Shown here in pieces: positions 14,592 through 29,295 of a stretch of 64,000 nt of DNA (its first letter is position 1; every line of letters begins with the position of its first letter). The position numbers were made by a program, and so were the translations under genes. The stretch is from Gammaproteobacteria bacterium (GTDB lineage Bacteria > Pseudomonadota > Gammaproteobacteria > UBA4575). The notes under the pieces are model-generated. The model was not told the origin of the DNA and searched no databases. It worked only from the letters and a program-made list of their open reading frames with translations. The DNA is taken from positions 576,001 through 640,000 of the forward strand of contig CBDCUI010000007.1 of assembly GCA_965222615.1 (NCBI GenBank), read 5' to 3'.

Positions 14592-14623
14592 GCCTGAATA
14601 ATTTATTATCTAATCTAATAAAA

Positions 14624-15112
14624 ATGCGCTCGTCTTCTTACAAAATTTGGTTGTTACTATTAATTCTATTAGCAGCAATTTTGCTTGCTATAGGTTTAGT
14701 CGCGCCGATTATTACTTTTAAAAAATTTATCTTTATTCAAAATACATTTTCTATACTTAGTGGGACTTGGCAACTTTTACAAGACGGACAGTTGTTTTTA
14801 TTTGTAATCATTACATTATTTAGCATCATTTTACCAATATTTAAGCTCGGCTTACTTACCAAACTGACATTTAGCTCAGATGCTATTAGCGCAAGTAGTG
14901 AAAAAACTTTAGCGCTGATACATCGAATAGGCAAATGGTCGATGTTAGACGTATTTGTCGTAGCAATACTTGTGGTGGTAGTAAAGCTAGGTGCAATAGC
15001 AGATGTCGAAAAACATATCGGCCTATATGCCTATGCGTCGGCGGCAATTTTGATCATGTTAATTACTAACACCATAGTCAAAATGAAAGAAGCTAACATC
15101 GAGGAAAAATAA
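14624..15112 (+). CDS. paraquat-inducible protein A (PqiA) domain membrane protein
   Basis: FSIILP.FKL and GKWSMLDVFVVA signature; single domain, no pqiB adjacent. Confidence 0.85.
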   Translation: MRSSSYKIWLLLLILLAAILLAIGLVAPIITFKKFIFIQNTFSILSGTWQLLQDGQLFLFVIITLFSIILPIFKLGLLTKLTFSSDAISASSEKTLALIHRIGKWSMLDVFVVAILVVVVKLGAIADVEKHIGLYAYASAAILIMLITNTIVKMKEANIEEK

Positions 15113-15617: not shown

Positions 15618-16355
15618 ATGGTGTATCGGCTAATATTTGTACTTGTTGTTGCGATAGGTATAGGAGCCTGCAGTAGCTCCTCGTCTGTCGGCCTGCCTAA
15701 AATCCCCAGTCCTTCATCCAGTGAACCACAAACTAGCTCTGAAGCAGCCGAAAAACAAGCCAAACAAACTGAACAAAGCAAGCCCTCTAAACAAGCAGAC
15801 AGTTCCAGCAGTAAAGAACAACAAGACGAGGCACCAGCAAGTGCTCAGACCGAAGAAGAAAAAGTAGCGGTACTCGACAAACAACTGGAAGAGGAATTGC
15901 GAAGTTACGATGAAGAATTACACAAAGAGCTAGAAAAAGCTGAAGCAGAAAAACAAGCTCAAGCTGCAGAACAAGAAGCCAAACAACAAGCCGAATTAGA
16001 ATCAGCAGAAGACGAAGCCATGGAAGAGGCTGGCGACACTGGTGAAGAACAGGAGTCTGGCCAACAAGGTGAACAAGTTGCTAAGGCGGGTTCACCCACC
16101 GCTGAACCTTCAGCCGATAGTGATGCAGGTGAGAACAGCCAATCAAGCACTGGAACACAAGACAAAGGCGCTACTGGTAGAACCCCAAAAGATATCCCAA
16201 GTGGTGACGATGATGATGTTGTCGCACGACAACTAAGAGAGGCAGCAGAAAAAGAACCTAACCCTGAACTTCGAGAAAAACTATGGGAAGAATATCGTAA
16301 ATATAAAAAACAACAAGCAAGTGTTAGTGCTCCAACCCCTAACGTAGAAAAATGA
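15618..16355 (+). CDS. acidic low-complexity lipoprotein of unknown function
   Basis: Lipobox IGAC; E/Q/A-rich coiled coil; C-terminal DDDVVARQLREAAEKE.NPELREKLWEEY. Confidence 0.75.
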   Translation: MVYRLIFVLVVAIGIGACSSSSSVGLPKIPSPSSSEPQTSSEAAEKQAKQTEQSKPSKQADSSSSKEQQDEAPASAQTEEEKVAVLDKQLEEELRSYDEELHKELEKAEAEKQAQAAEQEAKQQAELESAEDEAMEEAGDTGEEQESGQQGEQVAKAGSPTAEPSADSDAGENSQSSTGTQDKGATGRTPKDIPSGDDDDVVARQLREAAEKEPNPELREKLWEEYRKYKKQQASVSAPTPNVEK

Positions 16356-17536
16356 ACAAACAAGCAAGCCTTTTTCATCTTTTATTATTAATTCTCATTA
16401 GCAGCTTTCAGTTCAGCGGCTGTGCAACAAATACAGTAAAAGTTGATGGTGCAGAAAAAATAGAAACTGAAACTGTACAGTTACAAGAAGACAACTTGTT
16501 AGACGTGGGTATATTGTTGTTCGAAAAAGGTGAAATAACTGAAAAGCAAGAAGAAGATGAAGGCGTGCATGAAGACATACGTAAAGCCGAAGCACGTTAT
16601 ATGGCTTATCACCTTAAAGAAACGATGCAACGCGCCAATGGCTGGGGGGCCATTCGTGTGTTACCAACGGAATCGCAAATAGCCGATGTGATTGTACGCG
16701 GTACAATTATTTCCTCTAACGGTGAAGAATTAATAGTAAAAATGAACATCGTTGATAGCACAGGTCAGTTATGGTTTGAAAAAACCTATAAAACTGCTGC
16801 CGATGAAGAATCTTATCGTTATGCAAAACCTGGCAGAGATGTTTATCAACATGTTTATAACCGTATAGCAAATGACATACGCAAACATCGAAAAAAATTA
16901 ACCGAAAAAGAAACTATCACGATTAGAAATACTTCTGAATTGCGCTATGCAGCAGGCCTTTCACCCGATCCATTTGCAAACTATATTGATTCTGGTCCAA
17001 ATGGACAAAACACTATTGCACGATTGCCCGCTTCTAACGACCCAATGTTAAATCGCGTGCGTAAAGTTAGAGAACGTGAGTTTTTATTTGTTGACACTAT
17101 AAATGAGCATTACTCAAACTTTTACAATGAAATGTGGGACCCTTATGAGAATTGGCGAAAGTTTTATTTAATAGAAGCTGAACAACGACGTGAAGTAGAA
17201 CGACGCGCTAATCAAACAAAATTTATTGCTGCAGTGGTAATGATAGCAGGTATCTTTAGAGGGCCTGGTTTATTCACTACTGGAGCACTTTTATATAAAA
17301 ACGGAATGGATATAAGTAATGAAGCCGATATTCACGATGAGGCCATTCGTGAGCTCGGTGACTCTCTGCAGGCTGAAGTTAGCCCCTTGGTTGTAGAGAT
17401 ACAAGGACAAACTGTTGAGTTGACTGGTTCGATTGAAGAGCAATACCAGAAGTGGCGCAAGTTACTACGCGAAATTTATATTAATGAAACCGGTTTTGCC
17501 TTAGACGACAGCACAACAGAAAGCGCACAACTTTAG
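16352..17536 (+). CDS. lipoprotein of unknown function
   Basis: Lipobox FSGC; 394 aa; glycine-rich hydrophobic segment near residue 300; 4-bp overlap with upstream gene. Confidence 0.75.
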   Translation: MNKQASLFHLLLLILISSFQFSGCATNTVKVDGAEKIETETVQLQEDNLLDVGILLFEKGEITEKQEEDEGVHEDIRKAEARYMAYHLKETMQRANGWGAIRVLPTESQIADVIVRGTIISSNGEELIVKMNIVDSTGQLWFEKTYKTAADEESYRYAKPGRDVYQHVYNRIANDIRKHRKKLTEKETITIRNTSELRYAAGLSPDPFANYIDSGPNGQNTIARLPASNDPMLNRVRKVREREFLFVDTINEHYSNFYNEMWDPYENWRKFYLIEAEQRREVERRANQTKFIAAVVMIAGIFRGPGLFTTGALLYKNGMDISNEADIHDEAIRELGDSLQAEVSPLVVEIQGQTVELTGSIEEQYQKWRKLLREIYINETGFALDDSTTESAQL

Positions 17537-17592
17537 CTCGTGTGTTCTACGCGCGTAACCTAAGCGCACTAAACTGAATTTTAAAAACTTAA

Positions 17593-17803
17593 GGAAACAT
17601 TGATTTATTAGCGATAGCGACTGAGACTAGGCAAAAATGTCGAGACAAATTTGCCAGGAGCAAATTTGGGAGGCTCTGCTAGCCGCAGGCCGAGCACCAG
17701 GAAGGTGCGAGTCAAAGTAGAGTTTACACATTTGTTTGCGGCTTCGCCCGCCCCGCATTTTGAGACATTTTTTAACGATGGATCAGAATAAATTAGAGTT
17801 TGC
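17593..17803 (+). mobile_element. MITE-like palindromic element (IS5-like ends) carrying a nested insert of about 70 bp
   Basis: Ends GGAAACATTGATTTATT / AATAAATTAGAGTTTGC, flanked by TTAA/TTAG; shares GCGATAGCGAC, AGGCAAAAA, GCATTTTGAGA, TTTTTAACGA and ATCAGAATAAAT with 61816-61946. Confidence 0.7.
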
Positions 17804-17828
17804 TTAGTCTGGTTTGCACCTGGGTGCT

Positions 17829-19352
17829 ATGGAAAAACAAGATCCCACTCCTATTGAAGCGATTGACTTTACATCGCTAAACAAACATACAGAAAAAACT
17901 AAACCTGCTGAACAGATATCGGTAGGTAAAAACTCTAAATTGTGGTTGGCTTTTTTACTTCTCATCACCTGTGCTATTGGAGTATTTGTATTTCTGCCAA
18001 ACTTTGTACCAAAAAAGCAAGTTACGATTTCTCCTCCATCAAATACACCCATCGAAGCAGAACAAACACCAGAAATAACTGAACCTATAATAGAAGAATC
18101 TACAAAGTTATCAGCTGCAGAGCTAAGTAAACTCAAGGCTGAAACTGAGGAACTATTACTTCAAGTAATCAAGAAACAGGAATTACTACAGTCAAAAGGG
18201 ATTGAAAAATGGGCCAAGGAAGAATTCTCACAAGCTAGTTCTTATGCAACAACAGGTGATGAATATTTTCGTAAACAACAATATCCAGATGCAATAAATT
18301 CCTACCAACAAGCCATCGATGCCTTGCAACTCTTAGAAGATAATGTTGCACCCACCTTAGCCAAACACTTAGAGCAAGGTGAACACGCATTATTACAAGC
18401 CAATCGTGAAACAGCATTGTTTCATTTTGAGCTTGCTCAGGCGATTGACGCAGAAAACACACAGGCACTTAATGGTATAAAACGTGCTGAAACCATTGAA
18501 GAGCTATTTAAATTATTAGAACAGGGTGGAAATCTAGAAGCCGCAAATCGACTTGAAGATGCCAAACAAATTTATCAACAAGCCTTTGATTTAGATCCCT
18601 TATCCATTGAGGCAAAGACCGCAATTGCAAGAGTCTCAAAGCGTCTAGTTGAAATCAAATTCACTCAATTAATTGCGTCAGGCTATAGCTCTTTGGAAGC
18701 TAAGCAATTTAATGATGCACGCAAAGCATTCCTAGCCGCACAGAAACTAATGCCATCTTCCGAAAAAGCTAAGCAGGGTTTAAAAAAAGTAGCAACTGCA
18801 GTTCGCCGAGAGAAAATTTCCACTTTGACGGTTGAAGCTCAACATTTTGAAAACCTTGAAGAGTGGGAACATGCAATGCAAAGCTACCAACAGATTCTCA
18901 GCCTAGACTCGGCTTCCTCATTTGCGCAAAACGGTGTTGAACACAGTCAAAAACGAGCTGCTCTATTGCGAAATCTCGACGACTATCTCAAAAACCCTGA
19001 ACGATTATATTCTGAAGACGTTGCCAAAGAAGCAGGGAACTTATTAAATAAGGTTGCATCTTTACAAACACCTGGTGTGAAAATTTTGCAACGAGCTACC
19101 ACATTAAAAGAATTATTGGCTAGTGCCAGTCAGCCAGTCTCCATTATTTTACAGTCAGATAACCAAACCGATGTAGTAATATTTAAGGTTGGAAAGTTCG
19201 GTCGTTTTGAAAGTCATAAAGTAGAGCTTAAACCTGGTAAATATACTATCGTTGGATCGCGACCAGGATATCGAGATGTTAGAAAAGTGTTAACGATTAC
19301 TGCTGACATGACAAACAAAAATATTTTAGTTCGTTGCGAGGAACCAATATAA
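17829..19352 (+). CDS. membrane-anchored TPR-repeat protein with a C-terminal beta (PEGA-like) domain
   Basis: One TM near the N-terminus, repeated A...Y..A...DP TPR-like helices, C-terminal LKPGKYTIVGSRPGYRDVR; ATG 17829 preferred over TTG 17814. Confidence 0.75.
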   Translation: MEKQDPTPIEAIDFTSLNKHTEKTKPAEQISVGKNSKLWLAFLLLITCAIGVFVFLPNFVPKKQVTISPPSNTPIEAEQTPEITEPIIEESTKLSAAELSKLKAETEELLLQVIKKQELLQSKGIEKWAKEEFSQASSYATTGDEYFRKQQYPDAINSYQQAIDALQLLEDNVAPTLAKHLEQGEHALLQANRETALFHFELAQAIDAENTQALNGIKRAETIEELFKLLEQGGNLEAANRLEDAKQIYQQAFDLDPLSIEAKTAIARVSKRLVEIKFTQLIASGYSSLEAKQFNDARKAFLAAQKLMPSSEKAKQGLKKVATAVRREKISTLTVEAQHFENLEEWEHAMQSYQQILSLDSASSFAQNGVEHSQKRAALLRNLDDYLKNPERLYSEDVAKEAGNLLNKVASLQTPGVKILQRATTLKELLASASQPVSIILQSDNQTDVVIFKVGKFGRFESHKVELKPGKYTIVGSRPGYRDVRKVLTITADMTNKNILVRCEEPI

Positions 19353-19396
19353 ATTTTCAAGTTCTACTGCAAATAATTAACTACGTGTAATAGGAA

Positions 19397-21799
19397 ATGA
19401 TTAAACAAGTATGTGTAACGGATATTGGTGGGCCAAGATTTTATACTCATGCAGATTTTCCTCTTGCGATTGGGACGCACCCTGGGGCTGATATTCACAT
19501 CGAAAGCGACAATTCATCCTCACCTATTGCCTTTTTAATCATTATTGTCAATCGCACTTATATTGAAACGGAAAACAACTATGCCGATATATTAATTAAT
19601 AATGAGCGTGTAGTCGGCCAGCAAGAATTGCAGCATGACGATATCTTGCAAATTGAAAATACAACATTTCATTGTGAGCATATCGGCGACACTCTTTCTA
19701 TTTCTCTATATGATGATCAAGAGCATCTTGTTGCAACTGATCATGATGTTGCCTCTCACGGTGATTTAATTGAGCCAATTGAATTAAAAGAAGCATACCA
19801 AATACCAAAAAAGAACAAACTGGCTCGTTTATTATCAATTTTAGTTTTATTAGTTTTTGCGCTACTAGCTTTAGTCATTGGTTATATCTTTACAGCAAAA
19901 TCTCTATTAATCGAAATTGAACCGAAGCCAGACAGTGTTGCTTTAAGTGGAAAAATCTGGCCTTTAAAAATTAAGCACCGATACATCGTACAACCTGGAA
20001 AATATGCATTAGAAGTAAAAAAATCAGGTTATTACCCATTACAAGAGGAAATTAAAGTCACTCACCATCAAGCGCAAAGCCTATCCTTTGCGCTGAAAAA
20101 AAAGCCCGGTTACTTAAAAATAAATAGTCACCCCAGTGATGGTGTTCGTATTCTCATTGATGAAAAGGAATATGGAACCACGCCACTGGAAGAAATTGAG
20201 TTAGATGCTGGCTCTTATTCCGTACAAGCCTCTATTGATGATTATCAACTCTATACCACCCAGCTGGTCGTCGAAGGTAAAGAGCAACACCAAGAATTAA
20301 GCATAGAGCTGCTACCAAATTGGGCTGAAATATCGATTAACTCCAAACCTGGTAATGCTGAAGTTTGGATAAATGGAATGAACAAAGGCACCACGCCTTT
20401 GAAGCTAGATTTGCAAGCAGGTAGTTATACATTGGAACTACGTCATTCAGATTATTTACCCTATACATCTGATTTCTTAGTGGTTGCAAACGAACCTCAA
20501 GAATTGCCCTTAGCTGAGTTATTTAGCAACCCTAGTCATTTAGTCATCACTAGCGTCCCCTCTAAAGCCAAAGTATTACTGGCAGGTATTGAACAAGGCA
20601 TAACACCTTTAACTTTACGTTTAAACCCAAATACTGAACATTCTTTAACACTTAGCAGAGCCGGATTTAGGGATAATCAACAAACTGTTTTATTGAAACC
20701 AGGAGAACAGTCAACGCTTTCTGCTGAACTTGAAGCAATATTAGGGACAGTAGTATTCAATATACAACCGCAGGACTCTGAAGTATTTATTAATGGTAAA
20801 TTTACTGGTAGCGGTAACGTAAAACTTTCGCTCCCGAGTAGTCCACATAGAATAGAGGTTAGAAAGTCAGGTTATGAAGTTTTTGAAAAAATGATTACAC
20901 CTACAGCAGACTCGCCACAAATATTTGATGTGGTCTTAAATCGTATCACTAGTGCCACCAAGACCGATAAACCTAGTTTGATCCAAACTAGTCAGGGACA
21001 GGAATTAAAATTAATTTTTGGTGGCAAATTTTCTATGGGTGCTGCACGTCGTGAACAGGGTCGCCGTTCCAATGAAACTCTACACACCGTTGATCTACAG
21101 AGGCCTTTTTATATAAGTACAAATGAAGTTTCCAATGCACAATTTTTAGAGTTTAACCGCACACATAACTCTGGAATCTATAAAGGTAATGATTTATCTA
21201 GATCAAACCTACCGGTTGTGAATATAGAGTGGAATGATGCTGCAAAATATTGTAATTGGCTGAGTGAAAAAGAAGGTTTAGATAAGGTGTATAAACAAGA
21301 AGGTAATCAGTTAAAAGCCATCCATCCCATTCCTAACGGTTATAGGCTACCAACAGAAAGTGAATGGGAGTGGGTTGCACGCGTACAAGCTAGTGGCAAT
21401 ACACAAAGGTATATTTGGGGAGATACCTACCCGCCAAAGCAAGTTGTCGCGAACTTCGCCGATGTGTCAGCGGCAACGATATTAGATAGCGTAATCGAGG
21501 ACTACGATGATGGTTTCGCCATCAGTGCTCCGGTAAGAAGCTTCAAGTCTAATCACTTGGGAATTTTCAATCTAGGCGGTAACGTAGCAGAATGGTGTCA
21601 CGACTATCACAGTATTTACCCCAGCTTAAGTGACAAAGTATTTGTCGATCCCAGTGGTCCTTCGACAGGGGTAAATCACGTGATACGTGGTGCCTCTTGG
21701 ATGAGTGGAGATTTAAGTAGTACTCGCTTGAGTCACCGAGACAGAGCCAACAAAAAACGTGTTGATGTTGGCTTCCGTATCGCTAAATACATAGACTAA
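19397..21799 (+). CDS. FHA-like + TM + multiple PEGA + FGE-sulfatase (SUMF1/GldK-like) domain protein
   Basis: N-terminal INNERV...LQHDDILQI; repeated S.P..A.V.I.G...G.TP PEGA units; FSMG, EVSNAQF, PVVNIEWNDA, RLPTESEWE, GNVAEW, RGASW, GFR. Confidence 0.88.
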   Translation: MIKQVCVTDIGGPRFYTHADFPLAIGTHPGADIHIESDNSSSPIAFLIIIVNRTYIETENNYADILINNERVVGQQELQHDDILQIENTTFHCEHIGDTLSISLYDDQEHLVATDHDVASHGDLIEPIELKEAYQIPKKNKLARLLSILVLLVFALLALVIGYIFTAKSLLIEIEPKPDSVALSGKIWPLKIKHRYIVQPGKYALEVKKSGYYPLQEEIKVTHHQAQSLSFALKKKPGYLKINSHPSDGVRILIDEKEYGTTPLEEIELDAGSYSVQASIDDYQLYTTQLVVEGKEQHQELSIELLPNWAEISINSKPGNAEVWINGMNKGTTPLKLDLQAGSYTLELRHSDYLPYTSDFLVVANEPQELPLAELFSNPSHLVITSVPSKAKVLLAGIEQGITPLTLRLNPNTEHSLTLSRAGFRDNQQTVLLKPGEQSTLSAELEAILGTVVFNIQPQDSEVFINGKFTGSGNVKLSLPSSPHRIEVRKSGYEVFEKMITPTADSPQIFDVVLNRITSATKTDKPSLIQTSQGQELKLIFGGKFSMGAARREQGRRSNETLHTVDLQRPFYISTNEVSNAQFLEFNRTHNSGIYKGNDLSRSNLPVVNIEWNDAAKYCNWLSEKEGLDKVYKQEGNQLKAIHPIPNGYRLPTESEWEWVARVQASGNTQRYIWGDTYPPKQVVANFADVSAATILDSVIEDYDDGFAISAPVRSFKSNHLGIFNLGGNVAEWCHDYHSIYPSLSDKVFVDPSGPSTGVNHVIRGASWMSGDLSSTRLSHRDRANKKRVDVGFRIAKYID

Positions 21800-21803
21800 A
21801 GAT

Positions 21804-22046
21804 ATGAAAACTCAAAAAACCCTATTACTTATACTTATATCATTTGTATTTTATACAAGTAACCATTTTGCAATCGCAGAAGAAGCTACTACAGAAAAAA
21901 ACCAAGACACAGTTGAAGATGAAAGCACTACTGCTAGGCCAAAAATCAGTTCAAAGAAACGCAGCGAAGTTAAAAATTTGGAAGAATTTATTCCAAGTGA
22001 AGAAGTCTCCGCAGATAAACCAATTTCTTTCCCAATAGATATCTAG
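21804..22046 (+). CDS. small exported protein ending FPIDI
   Basis: Signal peptide, acidic linker, C-terminal EEFIPSEEVSADKPISFPIDI; 4-6 bp gaps to neighbours. Confidence 0.7.
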   Translation: MKTQKTLLLILISFVFYTSNHFAIAEEATTEKNQDTVEDESTTARPKISSKKRSEVKNLEEFIPSEEVSADKPISFPIDI

Positions 22047-22052
22047 TTAATA

Positions 22053-22850
22053 ATGAAAAAACATTATCCCTTTGAGTTTATATATCAAGTTTTTAGCTTA
22101 TTGATAATTGTAATCATTGTACATGCTGCATATGTCGCAGTAATTCGTCCTAATGCCGAAGCCGAACTGGAACAACAAGCTGCACAAATTAATATAGACA
22201 AAAACTATGTGCCAAAGCGTTCAATATATGTGTTGATACGCGACTATGAGCAAGAAGCATGTTTCATTCTAATGTTTTGGGCATTAGTAATTATGTCTTA
22301 TAAAGCAGCTAATTTATTTCGCGAACGCAGCTTACTTGAAAAAGACATATTACATGCCAAAGATGGCATGAAATTTTTACCACAAGACACACGCGAATTA
22401 TCCAGACAAATACAAAATCTACCTGAAGAAGAACATAATTATTTACTACCGCGTGCATTACAAGTTGCTCTACATAGATTTAGCTCCACGAAAAATATCC
22501 AAGACGTTTCATCAGCAACTAATATAGTTTGTGAATCAGAATCAGAACGTCTTGACTCTGAGTTATCAATTATCCGTTACATCACTTGGGCAATTCCCTC
22601 CATAGGATTTCTAGGAACCGTTCGTGGCATTGGTGATGCACTTGGACAAGCGCATAAAGCAGTAGAAGGAGATATAGCTGGTGTAACAGAAAGCTTAGGT
22701 GTGGCATTTAATTCAACACTTATTGCTTTGTGCATTAGTATATTCTTGATGTTTATTGTGCATCAGTTACAACTCCTACAAGAGAGGTTTATTTTAGATA
22801 CACAAAATTACTGCAACAACAATTTAATACGCCACCTACAAGTTCCATAG
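22053..22850 (+). CDS. MotA/TolQ/ExbB proton-channel family protein
   Basis: WAIPSIGFLGTVRGIG...SLGVAFNSTLIAL, the family's TM signature; about 4 TMs. Confidence 0.9.
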   Translation: MKKHYPFEFIYQVFSLLIIVIIVHAAYVAVIRPNAEAELEQQAAQINIDKNYVPKRSIYVLIRDYEQEACFILMFWALVIMSYKAANLFRERSLLEKDILHAKDGMKFLPQDTRELSRQIQNLPEEEHNYLLPRALQVALHRFSSTKNIQDVSSATNIVCESESERLDSELSIIRYITWAIPSIGFLGTVRGIGDALGQAHKAVEGDIAGVTESLGVAFNSTLIALCISIFLMFIVHQLQLLQERFILDTQNYCNNNLIRHLQVP

Positions 22851-22860
22851 CATCAGATAT

Positions 22861-24201
22861 ATGACGGCTGTAGTTGTTGATTTATATGATAGTGGTGTAC
22901 TAATTTGCGATGGAAATCGTATTCTTGCCAATAGTGCAAGCTTCGCTTTAATTGAATCTGATAACACCATCATTGTTGGTGAAACTGCTCAACAACAAGC
23001 ACACATTCGCCCACGGGAAATCAGTACACAATTTTGGCAACAACTGTCAAAAACTAGTAATACCAAGCACGTTGTAAGCAATGCTGAGATTGCATGTAGG
23101 CATTTGCAATACGTATGGGAACAGATTGAAGATCAAGCATATCAAGTCATTTTAGCCATTCCCAATGTATTAACTAAGCAAGATTTAGGGCTATTACTAG
23201 GTATTTGCGAAAAACTTTGCATAGCCGTTGCTGGCATTGTCAGTAAATCTGTACTTGCCCTGCATGGATATGCAGATGACTGTCGTGTTGTTTACCTAGA
23301 TATTTTACAACAACAAATCATCATTACAGAAATACTGCATAAAAAATCAAGCATATCAACATCAGATTCCAATTTATTTATAGACAACGGTATTCAACAT
23401 TTAACAAATAACCTAGCAAAACACATTGCCAAGAAATTTATTGCTGAAACGCGTTTTGACCCCTTACATGTTGCAGAAGATGAACAACTCTTTTATGACA
23501 AATTAGCCATGTGGTTATACCAGTTAGAATCAAGTGACAGTATACAATGCAGTTTAAGTTCAAGCTCTGGCGAATACCATGTTGAGATTCATAAAGACTA
23601 CTTATTGCTCTGCAATAAGAAAACATTTGATGCTATTGCTAATAGTTTAATGTCATTTGCGCAGGATCAAAAAAATGTCCTTATCATTTGTTCACCTACA
23701 TGTTTATCAATATTTGGATTACTCGATCATTTAATGTCACTTCCTGGCTGTGCGGTAAAAACCCTAAGCCACATCGATTTAGCTAAGCAAGCATTGCTTT
23801 ATGAAAATCAGATTAGCGCCAAAAGTGCTCAAATACATTACACAACATCACTTACTGACCAGGATTTGGCTTCGCTTGATTTAAACTTTAATTCTGGATC
23901 TTTATCAGATTTAAACAAAAAGCCTACACATCTACTAATAAACCATCATGCATATTCGCTTTCACAAACAAATTATCTGGCACAAGATAAACAAGGAGAG
24001 ATAACTATAGGCCTAGAATGCAGTCAAAGTAGTGTATGCAAAATCACGATGAATCAATTTTTAGTAAATGTTGAAAAAACGCAAAATGTGAAGCTTCATT
24101 TAAATGGAGTTGAAATTACGCAGCAACAATCTGTACAAATCGGTGACCGTCTGAGTATCAACAAAGATACTAATGAGCTATTTTTTATTAATGTGAATTA
24201 A
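22861..24201 (+). CDS. degenerate actin/Hsp70-like fold protein with C-terminal FHA-like region
   Basis: N-terminal VVVDLYDSG, IIVGETA, VILAIP, VYLDIL mirror ASKHA-fold strands; C-terminal LNGVEI...VQIGDRLSI; no signal peptide or TM. Confidence 0.55.
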   Translation: MTAVVVDLYDSGVLICDGNRILANSASFALIESDNTIIVGETAQQQAHIRPREISTQFWQQLSKTSNTKHVVSNAEIACRHLQYVWEQIEDQAYQVILAIPNVLTKQDLGLLLGICEKLCIAVAGIVSKSVLALHGYADDCRVVYLDILQQQIIITEILHKKSSISTSDSNLFIDNGIQHLTNNLAKHIAKKFIAETRFDPLHVAEDEQLFYDKLAMWLYQLESSDSIQCSLSSSSGEYHVEIHKDYLLLCNKKTFDAIANSLMSFAQDQKNVLIICSPTCLSIFGLLDHLMSLPGCAVKTLSHIDLAKQALLYENQISAKSAQIHYTTSLTDQDLASLDLNFNSGSLSDLNKKPTHLLINHHAYSLSQTNYLAQDKQGEITIGLECSQSSVCKITMNQFLVNVEKTQNVKLHLNGVEITQQQSVQIGDRLSINKDTNELFFINVN

Positions 24202-24202
24202 T

Positions 24203-25294
24203 ATGAAGCGAAGATCTGTCAATGCATTTAGTTTAGCTTTTTTGGATGTGATGTTTTGTGGATTTGGTGCGGTCATCCTATTTTTTATGATCATTAACGC
24301 TAATACTTATGAAAGAAGGGAAAAAATTAATGTTGTCGTTACTGGCGAGGCTGAAAAACTAGATGCTGAAGTTTTAGAAGGAAAAAAATTTCTTGTTGAG
24401 CTTAAAAACACACTGCAAAAAATAAATGAAGAGTTGGTGAAAACTCAAGGGCGCTCAAAAGAAGTCATTGAAAACATTACTGACAAAAAAGTTCAAATCG
24501 CACTACAACGCAAAGAAACCCTTGCTACGATCGAACAAATAAATAAGCTCAAGGCAGATTTAAAAGCACTTGAGGAGGCGAACCAGCGGCTAGAGGGCGG
24601 TGCTGCGAATGCACAATCACAAGGTGAACGGTTAAGATATTTTGCTGGGCAAGGGCAACGACAATATTTAACTGGCTTAAAAATGGGTGGCGAACGCATT
24701 TTGATTTTGGTTGATACATCCGCCAGTATGCTAGCAGATCGGATTATCAATATTTTACGTTTTCGCAATCTACCACAGACGGAAAGAATACGAGCAGCAA
24801 AATGGCAACAAGTATTGTACACCGTTGATTGGATCACTACGCGCATACCACCCTCTAGTAAATTTCAGATCTATACATTTAATGAGACCAGTTCGCCTGT
24901 TTATACAATAGAAGGTTCGCAGTGGTTAGACGGTGGCAATATTAAACATTTGAATACGGCTGTAGATAACTTCTTCGCAACTGCCCCAAATAAAGGGACA
25001 AGTCTATTAAATGCATTTCAGAGCATAAATAAACTTTCTCCACCACCCGATAACATTTATTTACTCACTGACGGGTTACCCACGCAAGGTGCGAACAAAT
25101 CAATTCGCTCAAAGATTAGCGCTAAGGATCGTAAAAAACTTTTTAATAAAGCCCTAAACAAACTGCCAACTGGCATACCCATTAATATAATTTTATTCCA
25201 TATGGAAGGAGATCCAGAGGCATCAAGCTTGTATTGGAAACTCGCGCAAAGATCCAATGGCGCATTTTTCAGTCCTTCCAAAGATTGGCCTTAG
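24203..25294 (+). CDS. TM + coiled-coil + von Willebrand A domain protein (ExbD/MotB-like N-terminus)
   Basis: FSLAFLDVMFCGFGAVILFF TM; heptad region; MIDAS DTSAS ... LLTDGLP. Confidence 0.85.
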   Translation: MKRRSVNAFSLAFLDVMFCGFGAVILFFMIINANTYERREKINVVVTGEAEKLDAEVLEGKKFLVELKNTLQKINEELVKTQGRSKEVIENITDKKVQIALQRKETLATIEQINKLKADLKALEEANQRLEGGAANAQSQGERLRYFAGQGQRQYLTGLKMGGERILILVDTSASMLADRIINILRFRNLPQTERIRAAKWQQVLYTVDWITTRIPPSSKFQIYTFNETSSPVYTIEGSQWLDGGNIKHLNTAVDNFFATAPNKGTSLLNAFQSINKLSPPPDNIYLLTDGLPTQGANKSIRSKISAKDRKKLFNKALNKLPTGIPINIILFHMEGDPEASSLYWKLAQRSNGAFFSPSKDWP

Positions 25295-25302
25295 TAAGAA
25301 AA

Positions 25303-26310
25303 ATGAAAAAACGTAGAAATATAGAAATATTTAACCTGTCTTTCTTAGACTGTGTTTGCTGCGGGTTCGGCGCACTTATACTGCTATTAGTACTATCAAA
25401 AACTGCAGAACCGATTATCTTCGAAGAGTACAGTAAGAATTTAGACAAGGTCGTAGCTAAACTTCATGAAGAACTCTATGAAATACGTGGTGAAACTCAT
25501 ATCCTGAACCGCGAATTGGTGAGCAAGAAAGAACAGCTTGCCCTTGAAGTTGAAAAGATCGCACGCCTGCAAGGTGATTTATCCTCTATTCTAGGACAAT
25601 TTTCGGCGTCAAAAGATGATGCAGTCATACAAAATAAAATTGAAGGACAACTTGCATCAGCTAAGCAGGATCTCACTGAAGAAATACGCCGTTTACAAGA
25701 ACAAGAGTTGCCACAACGCAGTGAGCCAGATGCCACTGTTGGAGGAATCCCTATTGATAGTGAATATATTATTTTTATTATCGATACATCTGGAAGTATG
25801 CAAAATCACGGTTGGGGCACTGTGCAACAAAAACTCCGTGAAGTATTAAATGTGTACCCAAAAGTAAAAGGTATGCAAGTGATGAATGACATGGGTGAAT
25901 ATATGTTTTCACAGTACACTGGTAAATGGATTCCAGATACGCCTGCGCGACGCAAAGTAGTGTTAAAACGTCTACGTAATTGGCAACCATTTAGTAACAG
26001 TAGTCCAGTTGAAGGAATCACGGCTGCAATACGAACTTTTTACTCTAAAAACAAAAAAATTAGTTTATACGTATTTGGCGATGAATTTACTGGCCCATCG
26101 ATACAATCTGTACTGCGCGAAGTAGACCTTATCAATAAAAAAGACAAATTTGGAAATCGTCGTGTTCGTATTCATGCAGTAGGCTTTCCTATTCAATTCA
26201 GTCGACCAGAAAGAGAACAAATTACTGGAATTCGGTTCGCCACGTTAATGCGTGCCCTGTGTGAACAAAACGGTGGAACATTTGTTGGATTGACTTCTCA
26301 TAGCCGTTAG
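25303..26310 (+). CDS. second TM + coiled-coil + vWA domain protein (paralog)
   Basis: FNLSFLDCVCCGFGALILLL TM; MIDAS DTSGS ... VFGDE, IHAVGF; ATG 25303 aligns with the paralog start. Confidence 0.85.
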   Translation: MKKRRNIEIFNLSFLDCVCCGFGALILLLVLSKTAEPIIFEEYSKNLDKVVAKLHEELYEIRGETHILNRELVSKKEQLALEVEKIARLQGDLSSILGQFSASKDDAVIQNKIEGQLASAKQDLTEEIRRLQEQELPQRSEPDATVGGIPIDSEYIIFIIDTSGSMQNHGWGTVQQKLREVLNVYPKVKGMQVMNDMGEYMFSQYTGKWIPDTPARRKVVLKRLRNWQPFSNSSPVEGITAAIRTFYSKNKKISLYVFGDEFTGPSIQSVLREVDLINKKDKFGNRRVRIHAVGFPIQFSRPEREQITGIRFATLMRALCEQNGGTFVGLTSHSR

Positions 26311-26480: not shown

Positions 26481-26662
26481 TTAACAATTTAGCAGCGACT
26501 AGTTTACTGCTGCATATTGTGATTAACTGATTGAAGTAACATAGTTTTATATTAATTCTTACTTTTTCTAGCAAAATAAACACGAAACCCCTAATTCATT
26601 TTATCGTGAGAAATATACCATTCACATCTTCAAAACCGTCTTATCTATTCAAGGAGTACAAA

Positions 26663-27232
26663 ATGTCACCACTTAACGTTTATCAAATTTTGAATTTCAA
26701 ACGGTTGGGAAATTTTAAAAGTATTTGCGGCTTACTATGCCTAACATCGCTTATTTTAATTGCATGTGGTGGAAACAATAATGAAACACCTGCTACAACT
26801 GAAGAATCTACAACTTCTTCTGTTCAAGTAGAACAAGCTAGCGACAGTGATATTGTCGCAGAGGTACATGCCAATAAAGAAAAATGGTTATCAAATGAAA
26901 TTAAACAGTATGAAATTGAAATACAGAAAATATGTTTTTGTGAACCAGATGCTGTTCGTTTAATGATATTCCATGTAGAGAATAATGAAATACAAGATGT
27001 ACGTTATGCAGATTCTGGTGAACAGGTAGATCCTAGTCATTATAACGAATTAAACACAATAGAAGGAATGTTTACATTAGTGGAACAAGCATTAGATAAA
27101 AACCCTGCAGATATTAGCATTGCTTATGATACAGAGTATGGTTACATTAAAGAACTTACTGTTGATTACCATGAAAATATAGCGGACGACGAGTTCACAT
27201 TTATTGCTTCTAATATGAAACAGAAAAAATAA
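26663..27232 (+). CDS. lipoprotein, DUF6174-like
   Basis: AAGGAG before ATG 26663; lipobox LIAC; KW...Y....ICFC, TIEGMF, YDTEYGY, DDEF motifs. Confidence 0.7.
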   Translation: MSPLNVYQILNFKRLGNFKSICGLLCLTSLILIACGGNNNETPATTEESTTSSVQVEQASDSDIVAEVHANKEKWLSNEIKQYEIEIQKICFCEPDAVRLMIFHVENNEIQDVRYADSGEQVDPSHYNELNTIEGMFTLVEQALDKNPADISIAYDTEYGYIKELTVDYHENIADDEFTFIASNMKQKK

Positions 27233-27261
27233 TTAAAATAAATTTATGGGTTGAGCTTTGT

Positions 27262-29295
27262 ATGAAAAAAATTTTTTTAGCTATAGTATTTATTTCACTA
27301 TTTACCCTTTTAAGTACAGCCCATTCCAACCAAACTCTCCCTATAGAAATAAATGGTGAAAGTTATCAAATTAAGTATTGGCCTAGCTATTTCGCTAAAG
27401 AACTAGATATAAATTACGTAGGTACTGATAAAGCTGATGCAGATAAAATAGATATCAGTTTTTATCGTGGCGAAGTCGTTGGTCATCCGGATTCACTGGT
27501 CACTCTTTCTAAAGCCGGTGATGATTTAAATGGCTTAGTATTCTTTTATGGTGAATACCATGAGATTGCTGGCACCATGTCTAAGTTAAATAATCAGTCA
27601 AACACTTCTATGCGAAGTGCAAAAATCCAGATCGCAGATATGGCGAAAAATGTGACACAAGAAATGTGCCCGATTCATACCCATGAACACCAAGAAATGC
27701 AAGCGACTGCTATGGTAACCATGGATACGAACACGAATGGTTTGCCTCCCATTGCATTTGCAGTTGGTAATGTAAATTTGGTCGCCGATGTTGCTTTGGC
27801 TTTAGACCCACAATATGTTTCCGTACATGGTGGCGCGACGAATGCTGTAATTAGAGCATTAGGAACGCTTGATAGGGCTGATATGTTTTATCGTCAAAAC
27901 AAACCCGCTACGGGGGCAGGTGGCTTGGGCATCGCGCTTAATAATGTAAGTGTCAATGTATACGCCAATACATTACCGTTTAATGTTGCCGATATCATCG
28001 ACGCCAGTCCCGATCTCAGTAACGGCTCGCGTCCTGAAATAGACGCCACCGCATATTTAACTAGAATTCAAGCTAACGGTGCAGCATTGTTTGGAAACAC
28101 ACGTACCGTAGGGGCCATGTTTAGTGGTTATGACTTAGACGATACTACTGTAGGTGATGGCGTCGCAGGACTGGCTTTTATTGCAACCACTTGTAGCAAT
28201 CTAGGTGTGAGTGTTTCAGAGGGTTGGGGTACCGAGGCCGCATCTGCTGTAATCACCGCACATGAAATTGCCCATAATTTTGGATCTTGTCATGATGGAG
28301 ACGGTATCCTAAATGCAGGACTAAATCTCTGTCCGGTTACCTCTGTTACTTGCCCTGCGAATGGTGGTTTTATTATGGCGCCATTTGTTAATGCGGTTGC
28401 TACACAATTTTCGCAGTGCTCTATTGCTAATATCGATTCTCACGCAAATCTACAAACCTGTTACAAACAGCCTATCGATATGCAAATTAGCTTACAAAAT
28501 GTTACCCCTGCCGTTAACAATACATTAAATCAAGGTGGCACAAGTGTACGAACATTTAGTGTAAGTAATATGGCTGATGTAATCCTCAGCAATATTAATA
28601 TCTCTGGCACATTAGCAAATCTTAGTGATCCCAATAATCCCAATACACAATATAGTGCAGTCACCTTAGAAGGCAACGCCTGTAGCATTGCGGCAAATGC
28701 TCAGTCTTATATTTGTTCGATTCCAACCATTGGTGCCAACAATGCCGATGTTCAACAAATCGTCGAAACCGTCACAGCTATAGGTACTGGCCAATATAAA
28801 TCTACAACCGAATACCGAAATGTCGTTGCCAATCAGCAAGTAGACATCGAACCACAAAATAGTATTGTAGAGCTAACGCAAGTTATTAATGTAAATGCGG
28901 CGGCTGCACCTCCTGCAGCACCGAGTAATGTACAAGCCATCGCATTATCCACTGGAGACATTCAAGTAAGCTGGACCGATAACAGTAACAATGAGGCTGG
29001 TTTTATTATTGAACGTAGTGAAGATGCGGGCGTAATGTATACGGTTATTCAAAATAACATTGCGGCAAATACTACAAGCTATGTAGACACCAATCTTGTT
29101 GAAGGCACGACCTATACGTACCGCGTCTCGGCAAGTAATAACATGGGCGCAGTAGTCGCAGCTAGTACACCAAGTGCTACCTCTTCTACCAACGCTGTTA
29201 TTTCTTCTGGTGGTGGTGGCGGAGGAGGTGGTGGTGCTTTTTATATTTTGTCATTGTTTTTGTTACTAGCACGAACTTTAACAAGGTCTAAATAA
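27262..29295 (+). CDS. secreted M12B/reprolysin-like zinc metalloprotease with FN3 domain and GlyGly-CTERM anchor
   Basis: Signal peptide; HEIAHNFGSCHD zinc motif; Met-turn GFIMAP; FN3 (WTDNS.NE.GF.IERS...Y.YRV.A); poly-Gly + TM + basic tail. Confidence 0.88.
   Translation: MKKIFLAIVFISLFTLLSTAHSNQTLPIEINGESYQIKYWPSYFAKELDINYVGTDKADADKIDISFYRGEVVGHPDSLVTLSKAGDDLNGLVFFYGEYHEIAGTMSKLNNQSNTSMRSAKIQIADMAKNVTQEMCPIHTHEHQEMQATAMVTMDTNTNGLPPIAFAVGNVNLVADVALALDPQYVSVHGGATNAVIRALGTLDRADMFYRQNKPATGAGGLGIALNNVSVNVYANTLPFNVADIIDASPDLSNGSRPEIDATAYLTRIQANGAALFGNTRTVGAMFSGYDLDDTTVGDGVAGLAFIATTCSNLGVSVSEGWGTEAASAVITAHEIAHNFGSCHDGDGILNAGLNLCPVTSVTCPANGGFIMAPFVNAVATQFSQCSIANIDSHANLQTCYKQPIDMQISLQNVTPAVNNTLNQGGTSVRTFSVSNMADVILSNINISGTLANLSDPNNPNTQYSAVTLEGNACSIAANAQSYICSIPTIGANNADVQQIVETVTAIGTGQYKSTTEYRNVVANQQVDIEPQNSIVELTQVINVNAAAAPPAAPSNVQAIALSTGDIQVSWTDNSNNEAGFIIERSEDAGVMYTVIQNNIAANTTSYVDTNLVEGTTYTYRVSASNNMGAVVAASTPSATSSTNAVISSGGGGGGGGGAFYILSLFLLLARTLTRSK

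Follow-up and report, generated by a model that had tools for sequence, protein, structure and literature searches.

A conserved nine-gene cassette encoding a candidate PMF-driven trans-envelope machine with a TolQ-like motor core

Organization and conservation of the cassette

The window analysed here, a stretch of 64,000 nucleotides from a member of the Gammaproteobacteria, contains at positions 15618-26310 nine closely packed genes (g1 to g9) that all run in one direction on the + strand, and the ORF coordinates thus bear out the tightly spaced, co-oriented group that had been recognized from the sequence. The spacers between consecutive genes are, in order, -4, 277-292, 44, 4, 6, 10, 1, and 8 nt, assuming that g9 starts at ATG 25303. 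The g2 and g3 genes are separated by a MITE-like dispersed short repeat (17537-17813, no strand assigned), which makes this the sole long spacer in the cassette. The repeat matches 53 places in its own genome, the best match being 87% identical over 188 nt, and therefore the earlier remark that a MITE sits in the cassette stands; it is an insertion and lies outside the machine proper.

Conservation was counted in 42 loci with at least 9.5 kb of sequence upstream of g9. The g3, g4, g6, g8, and g9 genes are each present in 42 of 42 loci, g2 in 41, g5 in 40, g1 in 37, and g7 in 36, and the exact g1-g9 order is kept in 28 of the 42. The gene order is also found in other families and extends over at least four phyla, the carrier loci belonging to Gammaproteobacteria, Desulfobacterales, Acidobacteriota, and Myxococcales, and no family among the flanking genes recurs in more than 11 loci. 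There are a few rearrangements: g6 lies on a separate contig in one genome and downstream of g9 in one locus, and in the L050 locus the cassette is split into two halves, g1-g4 and g5-g9, placed on opposite strands. Since the order is shared across loci and phyla, the objection that the homologs might not be syntenic fails, and the nine genes are one conserved unit, beyond what chance would produce.

Lipoproteins, membrane proteins, and the modelled g7-g4 contact

The g1 gene (15618-16355, + strand) encodes a lipoprotein of 245 amino acids, its lipobox cysteine having been read from the sequence. Its linker is long, acidic, and of low complexity, and its C-terminal motif (DDDVVARQLREAA...LREKLWEEYRKYK) is conserved in an alignment of 9 sequences; no Pfam family matched the protein. 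The g2 gene (16352-17536, + strand) encodes a second lipoprotein (394 amino acids), whose lipobox cysteine C24 is invariant (9/9). Behind its N-terminal alpha/beta domain, residues 231-342 form a long hairpin of helices whose hydrophobic turn is rich in Gly. When its model (pLDDT 76.7) was compared with the PDB by Foldseek, it matched an LPHT ring chain (3.5e-5), FlgT (2.9e-4), and PelC (7.7e-4), and after these LptE, GNA1162, the TolB N-domain, and CsgG; the N-terminal domain is thus modelled with a fold close to that of outer-membrane lipoproteins that assemble into rings, among them FlgT and PelC. The g5 gene (21804-22046, + strand) encodes a small exported protein of 80 amino acids. Its signal peptide is followed by a variable, acidic central part and then by a conserved C-terminus (F-x-P-S-E...F-P-x-D-I-COOH), in which P77, D79, and I80 are invariant and P64, E66, and F76 at least 90% conserved (n = 56 sequences). 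It remains with g6-g9 where the cassette splits.

The g3 gene (17829-19352, + strand) encodes a bitopic inner-membrane protein. Its short cytoplasmic tail, which bears the motif IEAIDF, leads through a single TM helix to TPR repeats in the periplasm, and a PEGA-like beta-sandwich forms the C-terminus. TPR_2 is matched by the window copy at 7e-11 and by 31 of 33 homologs, and PEGA at 0.012 and by 9 of 33. The ORF opens at TTG 17814, and ATG 17829 agrees with the starts of the homologs. In many other lineages, the N-terminus of g3 carries a Ser/Thr kinase (Pkinase in 15 of the 16 long homologs), a domain that the window copy does not have.

The g4 gene (19397-21799, + strand) encodes a protein of 800 amino acids that matches PEGA over five stretches (9.3e-55) and FGE-sulfatase (5.8e-42). 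It is composed of an FHA-like domain (about residues 1-115), a juxtamembrane cytoplasmic motif (residues 117-131, ...GDLIEPIELKEAY; 19745-19789, + strand), a TM segment from about residue 142, five PEGA domains, and an FGE fold (539-797). The N-terminal profile matches the FHA domains of EmbR (4e-4) and Ki-67 (2e-3) in the PDB, and this FHA-like domain is degenerate. The FGE domain is a predicted non-catalytic one, because both cysteine positions aligned to those of FGE 6muj are occupied by other residues in 10 of 10 sequences. It is in this respect like the structural FGE-fold proteins, PorK being among its PDB matches (2e-11), and g4 also matches the GldK model at 7.3e-30 with 104.6 bits (cut-off, 350) and reaches 43.7 bits with GldJ (cut-off, 458).

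The g7 gene (22861-24201, + strand) encodes a cytoplasmic protein of 446 amino acids, with an Hsp70-NBD-like (actin-fold) domain followed by a C-terminal FHA-like domain. The best PDB matches of its model (pLDDT 87.6) are the nucleotide-binding domains of DnaK/Hsp70 (E 1e-17), and among ten homologs FHA is matched by two (best 5e-12) and HSP70 by two, so the label actin-like/FHA given to g7 in the original prediction was right at the superfamily level. The FHA-like domain is degenerate in the window copy. The nucleotide-binding motifs of g7 are degenerate, and the protein may therefore be a scaffold instead of an ATPase. The family comprises 1351 clusters at E<=1e-30. As g7 is missing from a sub-group of loci (g6 directly adjoins g8 in 15 of 80), it is an accessory part.

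A contact between g7 and g4 was modelled with a score of 0.75 (runs, 0.74, 0.75, and 0.76; best control, 0.00), as a prediction from our own alignments in which the partner fold is uncertain (pLDDT 48-52). The mark used for this score is passed by 116 of 157 solved complexes and by 2 of 215 mismatched pairs, and the runs have at least 74% of their contacts in common. On the g4 side the interface covers residues 117-131, exactly the conserved motif, and on the g7 side residues 102-118 and 324-330, the most conserved surface of g7. The g4 motif is thus the predicted docking site for g7, and a similar motif in the g3 tail probably docks g7 as well. By our own regular expressions, which leave near-misses, 34 of the 45 scorable loci containing g7 have the g4 tail motif [IVLM]x[PA]xx[FYW], which none of the 12 loci without g7 has, and a canonical FHA signature in g7 occurs in 13 of 15 kinase loci and in none of the 22 loci with a short g3, co-occurrences that may each reflect one or a few evolutionary events because related loci are not independent. 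The window lineage is best explained as having lost the g3 kinase, its FHA domains being degenerate.

The putative g6, g8, and g9 motor core

The g6 gene (22053-22850, + strand) encodes a membrane protein of 265 amino acids of the TolQ/ExbB/MotA family, matching MotA_ExbB at 9.5e-15 with 54.9 bits (Pfam cut-off, 22.9) and the tolQ model with 29.5 bits (cut-off, 221). Its pore threonines T189 (GTV) and T222 (NST) are at least 97% conserved (n = 72 homologs), and g6 is presumed to form a pentameric ion-conducting wheel. There are seven MotA_ExbB genes above cut-off in this genome, and g6 is the only one with neither an adjoining ExbD-family match nor a stator-like position; the six ExbD-family genes are all on other contigs, where they adjoin other MotA_ExbB genes.

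The g8 (24203-25294, + strand; 363 amino acids) and g9 (25303-26310, + strand; 335 amino acids) genes encode two putative axle subunits, each with a TM helix, a coiled coil, and a vWA head. The g9 ORF opens at TTG 25234, and ATG 25303 was taken as its start. The N-terminal helix of g8 contains Asp15 (24245-24247), invariant in 69 of 69 homologs, and that of g9 Asp16 (25348-25350), invariant in 66 of 66. Both helices are preceded by basic residues and therefore should have an N-in topology. In g8 the coiled coil spans about residues 40-150 (coiled-coil matches at profile positions of about 40-160) and the head carries a complete MIDAS (D171, S173, S175, T266, and D290, invariant columns in 69 sequences); the g9 head carries DxSxS (D161, S163, and S165) and D260 (invariant columns in 66). 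The window copies fall under the Pfam cut-off for VWA_2 (22.5 bits for g8 and 21.1 for g9 against 27); 13 of 17 members of the two families match it (best 5.9e-9), and the DxSxS motif is invariant in both families. The two proteins share only about 19-20% identity and are therefore distinct paralogs, always found as a pair (42/42 loci).

The original prediction had treated the vWA proteins as extras and had seen no partner of the TolR/ExbD/MotB type. The two invariant aspartates and the lack of an ExbD-family gene beside g6 speak against that view, and, on sequence evidence, g8 and g9 are the putative partners that were supposedly missing. Homology of their helix to ExbD/TolR is not demonstrable by profile alignment, since hhalign places FLD on LID with a probability of 0.8%.

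Proposed mechanism and relation to known systems

On the basis of gene content, synteny, conserved residues, folds, and one modelled contact, we give somewhat better than an even chance to a PMF-driven trans-envelope machine built around a 5:2 rotary motor of the MotAB/ExbBD/TolQR type, the 5:2 assembly leaning here on the AF3 models reported in PMC12204202. The nine proteins would be assembled physically as one complex, whose stoichiometry, rotation, vWA-head partners, and biological output we infer as follows. A g6 pentamer would act as the wheel and a g8/g9 heterodimer, in place of TolR, ExbD, or MotB, as the axle, each subunit inserting into the wheel one helix with an Asp of the essential type. 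The stalk would consist of a coiled coil of about 110 residues (about 15 nm) ending in a metal-ion (MIDAS) vWA head, and ion flow would rotate or pull it. By pure inference, the heads would act on partners from the same cassette located at a similar height or at the outer membrane; candidates would be the non-catalytic FGE-fold head of g4, carried on five PEGA domains, the TPR protein g3, the small g5 peptide with its conserved acidic C-terminus, and the lipoproteins g1 and g2, the latter with a fold of the ring-forming kind. In the cytoplasm, g7 would sit on the g4 tail motif and probably also on that of g3, and in many lineages the g3-fused Ser/Thr kinase and canonical FHA domains would add phospho-threonine control. 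As its output, the machine would most likely pull on the outer envelope in the manner of Tol-Pal, or remodel it.

A surface-motility or adhesion machine that moves an outer-envelope track or an adhesin, like GldLM/GldKN in T9SS gliding or like Agl-Glt, appears unlikely. The FGE fold of g4, shared with GldK, PorK, and GldJ, would agree with it, as would a periplasm-spanning stalk akin to GldM, a dimeric stalk across the periplasm, and the Glt system also includes TPR proteins and lipoproteins. However, the GldK and GldJ scores of g4 stay below their cut-offs, g6 falls in MotA_ExbB, a GldL- or GldM-like protein is absent, neither an outer-membrane barrel nor a secreted adhesin nor a T9SS signal is encoded in the cassette, and the carriers include taxa not known to glide. 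For the other vWA family, gliding has been the subject of speculation in PMC12204202.

Still less likely is a Zorya-like anti-phage or conflict system, whose motor would sense envelope perturbation and signal inward via the kinase, FHA, and Hsp70-like parts. The ZorA match of g6 (1.2e-4, 19.2 bits) is weak, it is the only match to the PADLOC models, and ZorB, ZorC, and ZorD are absent. The spread is patchy: of 300 genomes of the class, 11, from separate families, contain g7 homologs (one, G039, unpublished). The g9 protein is 56-82% identical across phyla, suggesting horizontal transfer, and vWA, FHA, kinase, and PEGA domains recur often in the conflict systems listed by PMC7159879. Against a defence role, the nine proteins include no nuclease, protease, pore-forming, or NADase effector, the bulk of their mass is periplasmic or lipoprotein and not cytoplasmic, gene content and order vary less, and the proteins are better conserved, than is usual for such systems, and the recurring flank families that were scanned show no recurrent defence genes.

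The assignment of a mainly signalling function, in which a receptor kinase/TPR sensor would work with FHA adaptors and the TolQ-like and vWA proteins would be a gated ion channel or sensor and not a force generator, is improbable, and we place it lower again. The window lineage and many others keep all the other parts without the kinase and with degenerate FHA domains, a transcription factor or other output domain is absent, and the Asp and Thr residues kept so strictly are the ones found in 5:2 motors that generate torque; these observations outweigh the frequent g3-fused kinase, the FHA domains in g7 and g4, and the analogy with the threonine-phosphorylation pathway of type VI secretion, with Fha1 and PpkA, a kinase with a periplasmic vWA domain. 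That g1-g4 and g5-g9 are two independent modules only travelling together, as the split in L050 and the g6 gene on another contig might indicate, is highly improbable, since both halves occur together in every one of the 42 loci with enough flank, the modelled g7-g4 contact links them, and loci without g7 lack the g4 motif.

As had been anticipated, the PMF-driven machine that we favour fits none of several named systems: the cassette does not correspond to the definitions of Tol-Pal, Ton, the flagellar stator, T9SS/gliding, or Zorya. Profile searches of the nine proteins matched no TonB, TolA, OmpA-like, or flagellar family, upholding the absence of such partners noticed at the outset, and the cassette encodes no outer-membrane barrel, peptidoglycan-binding OmpA domain, or surface protein. 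The parts are predicted to span the cytoplasm, the inner membrane, the periplasm, and probably the outer membrane, in line with the original prediction. The suggestion that the system could be undescribed has to be narrowed to the six genes outside the motor core, for which we found no published description. The in silico study PMC12204202 (2025) reports tolQ-like genes with paired 'TPH-vWA' genes and without tolR/exbD, and its AF3 models put the Asp pair within the Thr ring; the TolQ-like and paired TPH-vWA core is thus already known, and the motor of this cassette has the same architecture.

Organization and conservation of the gene cluster

The region 15618-26310 of the window contains nine ORFs (g1 to g9), all on the + strand, in which neighbours overlap or lie no more than 44 nt apart, the g2-g3 spacer excepted. 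They encode two lipoproteins (g1 and g2), a TPR protein (g3), an FHA-PEGA-FGE protein (g4), a small exported protein (g5), a TolQ/ExbB/MotA-family protein (g6), a protein that resembles Hsp70 nucleotide-binding domains (NBDs) and carries an FHA part (g7), and two proteins that join a TM helix, a coiled coil and a vWA domain (g8 and g9). The original prediction had placed a MITE in the g2-g3 spacer (17537-17813), and rightly so, since this sequence is a dispersed, MITE-like repeat, about 190-200 nt long, for which the 3.10-Mb genome to which the window belongs gave 53 matches, on all three of its large contigs. Many of these matches are half-copies that cover only the ends of the query (about 50-110 and 219-270), suggesting the presence of terminal repeats. 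A scan of the cassette gave 19 promoter-like sites against 33.2 expected from shuffled sequence, and 10 terminator-like sites against 9.0 expected, so that neither count stood out from the shuffled background or told anything about operon structure.

Directly downstream of g9, on the + strand (26606-29295), lie the gene for a DUF6174 protein (2.4e-30) and that for a reprolysin-like zinc metalloprotease (M12B), 677 aa long and with an fn3 domain. This pair recurs only in close relatives of the window (5 and 4 loci) and is a possible lineage-specific accessory of the cassette. Upstream (13929-15112) there are a ChrR-type cupin gene on the - strand (Cupin_7, 5.7e-67) and a short PqiA ORF. PqiA proteins usually have two PqiA domains; this ORF, of 162 aa, has a single one (3.4e-25), and the short form is kept in one other cassette locus (L013).

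Among 300 genomes sampled from the same class, 11, each of another genus, have a g7 homolog (the window's own genome and genome G039 included). Nine of these 11 loci were compared, leaving out locus L006 of G039. By single-sequence phmmer, five of the eight long loci have all nine genes in the same order, and the other three lack one gene each (g5 twice, g6 once), one of them having g6 after g9; the ninth locus is a 5.8-kb contig that runs from part of g4 to g9. A scan with the g9 alignment, using one genome per species, yielded at least 591 stretches. With at least 564 species-level genomes confirmed as matches, the cassette is common; it is also strongly conserved across phyla. The best 80 matches, with 56-82% identity, come from Gammaproteobacteria, Desulfobacterales, Myxococcales and Acidobacteriota, the latter represented by Vicinamibacteria, Holophagae and Thermoanaerobaculia. 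The g7 family comprises 1351 sequence clusters at 50% identity (E<=1e-30).

A second round of searches, with profiles built from the first-round loci, scored the 42 loci that have at least 9.5 kb upstream of g9. The genes g3, g4, g6, g8 and g9 are each present in all 42, g2 in 41, g5 in 40, g7 in 36 and g1 in 37, a count for which the 10-kb flank may itself have cut off g1 in some g1-less loci. The exact g1-g9 order is kept in 28 of the 42. Since g6 directly abuts g8 in 15 of 80 loci, with a gap of 5-88 nt, a g7-less variant of the cassette exists. Other rearrangements are seen in L050 (Myxococcales), where g5-g9 and g1-g4 are on opposite strands, in L019, where g6 has moved behind g9, and in L016 of genome G204, which is devoid of g6 while a 57%-identical copy of this gene lies on another contig. 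The original prediction had made a single system depend on the synteny of its homologs, and the gene order is clearly common to several phyla. Thus, the nine genes are one conserved cassette.

The flanks do not reveal a tenth general gene, with no flanking family in more than 11 loci. Two more co-oriented genes, of about 210-250 aa each and without a Pfam family, lie beside the cassette in about 10-11 loci (L016-L018, L020, L021, L048, L054, L068, L088, L090, L100 and L101) and are not found in the window. They are located just after g9 except in L021, where the second gene is on the far side of the cassette, and they could serve the cassette as a tenth and an eleventh gene of an accessory kind. 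In about 10 loci (L016, L017, L018, L021, L048, L051, L054, L083, L098 and L101), the cassette adjoins the gene of a TPR protein that ends in a TonB_C domain (1.1e-5 in L083); of 13 such ORFs, 10 are on the opposite strand. This neighbour, which the window does not have, is a possible tie to TonB-like force transduction. A sigma-54 activator and an M48 peptidase are each found in the flanks of 6 loci.

Proposed motor core and accessory proteins

The g6 product belongs to the MotA_ExbB family (Pfam, 9.5e-15, over the cut-off), and its nearest NCBIfam model is TolQ, with 29.5 bits against a cut-off of 221. Its residues T189 and T222 are at least 97% conserved among 72 homologs and, according to the GTV and NST motifs in which they lie, we take them to be the pore threonines of ExbB/TolQ. 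No ExbD, MotB or OmpA family was matched by Pfam or NCBIfam in the nine cassette proteins. The same genome encodes seven MotA_ExbB proteins over the cut-off, g6 included, and six ExbD-family proteins. All six ExbD-family genes are on other contigs, adjoining other MotA_ExbB genes, and therefore g6 has no conventional partner. The six MotA_ExbB genes other than g6 lie on contigs C8 and C9, many motors for a 3.1-Mb genome, and two of them (C8:611800 and C8:1092067) each precede a pair of ExbD-family genes.

The proteins g8 and g9, both encoded in 42/42 loci, share 19-20% identity and are, judging from their sequences, distant paralogs. Their N-termini consist of basic residues followed by a hydrophobic helix with an invariant Asp (D15 in 69/69 g8 homologs and D16 in 66/66 g9 homologs), near which Phe, Cys and Gly are also conserved. 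Both membrane helices are devoid of His, and neither an SHLS nor another His motif can be read in them. In their topology, and in where the Asp lies, g8 and g9 agree with MotB, ExbD and TolR. When 150 g8/g9 N-termini were aligned by hhalign with those of the six ExbD proteins of the genome, FLD fell on LID with a probability of only 0.8% (P 0.067), and thus the likeness to ExbD is functional, homology being unproven. Over the stretch that follows the helix, the g8/g9 profile finds coiled coils when searched against the PDB; the best 60 of 124 matches were all of this kind and did not include a vWA chain. The vWA domain comes after the coil; VWA_2 was detected in 13 of 17 g8/g9 members, the matches of the window copies being weak and below the cut-off. 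The MIDAS residues are invariant in both families (D171, S173, S175, T266 and D290 in g8; D161, S163, S165 and D260 in g9).

The window copies of g1, g2, g5 and g7 do not match any Pfam family. The g1 lipoprotein has a low-complexity linker and, as its alignment reveals, a conserved acidic C-terminal helix. In the structural model of g2 (pLDDT 76.7), an N-terminal domain followed by a long helical hairpin resembles FlgT of the Vibrio flagellar ring, PelC, LptE, GNA1162, the TolB N-domain and CsgG (E 3.5e-5 to 7e-3), a group of lipoproteins that form or join rings beneath the outer membrane. Pfam identifies TPR repeats in g3. The g5 protein has a signal peptide, and its only conserved part is the C-terminus, which ends in P-x-D-I, invariant in 56 sequences.

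The g4 protein contains PEGA domains in five stretches (9.3e-55) and an FGE-sulfatase domain (5.8e-42). The latter is closest in the PDB to true FGEs (2.6e-25), with PorK/GldK also among the matches. The catalytic residues of FGE are the two Cys of its C-terminal LCxxSYC segment. Compared with the FGE structure 6muj, g4 has Ser at both positions, and none of 10 homologs has a Cys at either of them, and thus the domain is a structural one, as in PorK/GldK, and not a catalytic FGE. In some lineages only, g4 has an N-terminal extension of about 115 residues. Single N-termini gave sub-threshold FHA matches in 4 of 24 cases (0.003-0.009), and a smaller Pfam set gave FHA in one of nine (0.025) and YscD_cpl in the window copy (0.078). 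We have taken the extension as FHA-like because these weak matches were settled by a profile search against the PDB, which retrieved the FHA domains of EmbR (4e-4), Ki-67 (2e-3), EssC, Rv1747 and GarA. By eye, the usual Arg and Ser of FHA domains are missing.

In the model of g7 (pLDDT 87.6), the first 330 residues, approximately, find their best Foldseek matches in Hsp70 NBDs (E 1e-17), with a TM score of about 0.7 against NBD-only chains. Pfam detects FHA at the C-terminus in two of 10 homologs (best 5e-12) and a weak HSP70 match in two of 10 (0.003). The phosphate-binding glycines (DxG/GG motifs) are mostly replaced, as seen by eye in the alignments, and the segment RFDPLH...EQ is invariant. 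With these degenerate motifs and an FHA-like C-terminus in place of a substrate-binding domain, g7 does not qualify as an Hsp70 chaperone, and it may serve as a scaffold, not as an ATPase.

The cytoplasmic layer and the proposed mechanism

An N-terminal Hanks-type kinase precedes the TM helix and the TPRs in 15 of 16 long g3 homologs; the g3 of the window has a tail of only about 40 residues and no kinase. ORFs outside set length ranges had been dropped before alignments A5-A10, and the long g3 forms, kept out of the g3 alignment (A8), were scanned separately, the 1108-aa g3 ORF of L054 not entering the kinase scan. A canonical FHA signature, defined by a regular expression of our own that some Desulfobacterales copies narrowly miss, is present in g7 in 13 of 15 kinase-bearing loci vs none of 22 loci with a short g3. 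A second association concerns the motif [IVLM]x[PA]xx[FYW], which lies just before the TM helix and is common to g4 tails and often found in g3 tails. In g4, it was found in 34 of 45 scorable loci that contain g7 and in none of 12 g7-less loci, 8 loci being unscorable. Both co-occurrences may reflect few independent events.

A complex of g7 with residues 96-141 of g4 was modelled with a score of 0.75 (0.74, 0.75 and 0.76 in individual runs) vs 0.00 for the best control. Of 157 solved complexes, 116 attain the mark used for this score, as do 2 of 215 mismatched pairs; this calibration is only rough here, since our own alignments were used. The runs share at least 74% of the contacts, and the partner has a pLDDT of at least 48, so that the fold of the g4 tail itself is uncertain in the model. 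The modelled interface places residues 117-131 of g4, i.e., exactly the motif, against residues 102-118 and 324-330 of g7, its most conserved surface. This model supports a predicted binding of g7 to the motif of the g4 tail.

In the best-supported picture, a g6 pentamer and a g8/g9 heterodimer would constitute a 5:2 ion-driven motor whose axle would extend over a coiled coil, about 15 nm long, and end in two vWA heads that bear the MIDAS. The five PEGA domains would lift the FGE-fold head of g4 to a height similar to that of the vWA heads, both being approximate estimates from the usual dimensions of such elements. The vWA heads would act on partners from the cassette; g5 and g1, whose C-termini are acidic and strictly conserved, would offer attractive candidates for MIDAS ligands. 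The g2 lipoprotein may form an outer ring. From the cytoplasm, g7 would clamp the tails of g4 and g3, and kinase/FHA signalling would add control in those lineages that have both. PEGA domains are described as peptidoglycan-associating in the passages on them in PMC7159879, and therefore g4 might also provide the wall anchor that is built into MotB and TolR. Of the possible outputs, we judge it most likely that the machine would pull on the outer envelope, or remodel it, in the manner of Tol-Pal.

The cassette offers a defined parts list and obvious targets for point mutations, namely the Asp of g8 and that of g9, the MIDAS sites and the motif in the g4 tail. The modelled cytoplasmic contact between g7 and g4 is open to a direct test, and nature provides on/off comparisons, one of lineages that have the kinase with those that lack it, the other of g7-containing with g7-less lineages. 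Its carriers include a cultured bacterium, Seongchinamella unica GH4-78 (L101), and, according to the text of PMC12204202, Idiomarina. Since cultured carriers exist, both function and mechanism are directly testable.

Comparison with described systems

The original prediction had raised the question of whether the system was undescribed. For the motor core it is not, as an in silico study (Williams-Jones et al., 2025; Mol Biol Evol msaf138; PMC12204202) has described the family; the nine-gene system around this core is not in the text of that paper. The second vWA family that it describes consists of TM-tethered vWA proteins, mostly in heterologous pairs, with a conserved Asp and without SHLS, encoded beside a tolQ-like gene with no tolR/exbD in Proteobacteria and beyond. 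In the AF3 models of the paper, the helices of the vWA proteins lie within a pentamer of the TolQ-like protein, in a 5:2 stoichiometry and with their two Asp at the Thr ring; according to its authors, the function of this motor (TPH-vWA) is not known. The window agrees with that text in every feature given there: a tolQ/exbB-like gene (g6) without a tolR/exbD/motB neighbour, two different TM-tethered vWA genes encoded together, an Asp in the membrane helix, no SHLS/His, and a conserved pore Thr. Equating by description, we infer that the core of the cassette is of the same family as the Idiomarina example of that paper. The text covers only the tolQ and vWA genes, the other six genes of the cassette being absent from it, although the supplement may show neighbours; in most cassette loci, g7 separates the tolQ-like gene from the vWA pair.

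Full-text searches for the whole cassette retrieved this paper as the only relevant one. Term searches found no mention of vWA in two later papers on MotAB and Ton/Tol motors (PMC12505986 and PMC12905483), and a survey of conflict systems (PMC7159879) does not describe the cassette in its passages on these domains. Within the searched literature, neither the nine-gene system around the core and its kinase/FHA and Hsp70-fold layer, nor the predicted g7 docking motif, the non-catalytic FGE domain and the ring-type lipoprotein, are in print.

Among the known machines, the Tol-Pal system likewise combines a channel of the TolQ family and its Asp-bearing partner with a TPR protein, lipoproteins of the outer membrane and a helical element that spans the periplasm, all in one operon and presumably PMF-driven. 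Neither TolA, nor the TolB beta-propeller, nor an OmpA-like Pal was matched in the nine proteins and, unlike in Tol-Pal, the stalk would be part of the axle itself and end in vWA heads. The own genome has other TolQ/ExbB-ExbD sets, and thus the cassette does not replace Tol-Pal.

Other outputs are kept as rivals to this envelope function. Motility or adhesion would recall GldLM (PorLM), a 5:2 motor with a periplasm-spanning dimeric subunit that meets an FGE-fold protein of the GldK/PorK-GldN ring near the outer membrane, and the FGE domain of g4 is non-catalytic as in GldK/PorK. On the other side, g6 is of the MotA_ExbB family and not GldL, the stalk is a coiled coil with vWA and not the GldM domains, and the FGE domain of g4 is tethered to the inner membrane via five PEGA domains, whereas GldK is a lipoprotein. 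The T9SS/gliding machinery itself was discarded, as g4 reached 104.6 bits against GldK, its nearest NCBIfam model (cut-off 350), and 43.7 against GldJ (cut-off 458.2), GldL, GldM and GldN were unmatched, and there is no T9SS translocon. Defence would recall Zorya, made up of ZorAB with ZorC/D or ZorE, which shares a non-flagellar MotAB-like motor, a long coiled coil and a patchy distribution. In Zorya, the long tail is cytoplasmic and belongs to the A subunit, ZorB has a peptidoglycan-binding domain, and the effectors are of nuclease type; the coil of the cassette, in contrast, is periplasmic and on the B-type subunits, and there is no effector. PADLOC, proposed in the original prediction as a check on whether a named system matches, returned none; its only match was ZorA, weak (1.2e-4, 19.2 bits) and over the channel part, with no other Zor model, and Zorya was rejected. 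Pure signalling would find a counterpart in the threonine-phosphorylation pathway PpkA-Fha1 of type VI secretion, where a membrane kinase and an FHA adaptor may be compared with g3 and g7 in the control of an envelope machine; unlike PpkA, the g3 kinase carries TPRs and not vWA, and it is absent from the lineage of the window. In PilM-PilN of the type IV pilus, a cytoplasmic protein with an actin fold holds a bitopic membrane protein by its short N-terminal tail, much as g7 holds g4 in the model, although g7 has no sequence relation to PilM and Foldseek puts Hsp70 NBDs first. These last two comparisons are analogies rather than tested memberships.

The remaining candidates are dismissed, as no TonB, TolA, OmpA-like, flagellar or AAA+ family was matched in the nine proteins. 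A Ton system lacks both TonB (TonB_C) and a TonB-dependent receptor in the cassette of the window, a flagellar stator (MotAB/PomAB) lacks OmpA and MotB_plug matches and flagellar genes in the cassette, and operons of the MoxR-vWA or Bat aerotolerance type lack an AAA+ protein (Pfam, NCBIfam).

To our knowledge, the jobs of MotAB-type 5:2 motors are few, namely flagellar rotation, Ton uptake, Tol-Pal envelope maintenance, gliding/T9SS and Zorya defence, and the cassette would add another one. Among the envelope systems driven by such motors, the chance that the cassette represents a class with a new function is substantial. The complete proposal is advanced tentatively, at somewhat short of even chances. 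It would be an unrecognised class of trans-envelope machine in which a 5:2 ion-driven motor has as its axle a vWA-headed coiled-coil heterodimer, whose heads would exert mechanical work on outer-envelope partners via metal-ion (MIDAS) contacts. Its scaffold would comprise the FHA-PEGA-FGE protein, the TPR (receptor-kinase) protein and the ring-type lipoproteins, and its cytoplasmic switch an Hsp70-fold clamp and, ancestrally or in many lineages, threonine phosphorylation. Such a machine would have spread horizontally through sediment and marine bacteria of several phyla, and its envelope function would have no counterpart in the Tol, Ton, flagellar, gliding or Zorya systems.
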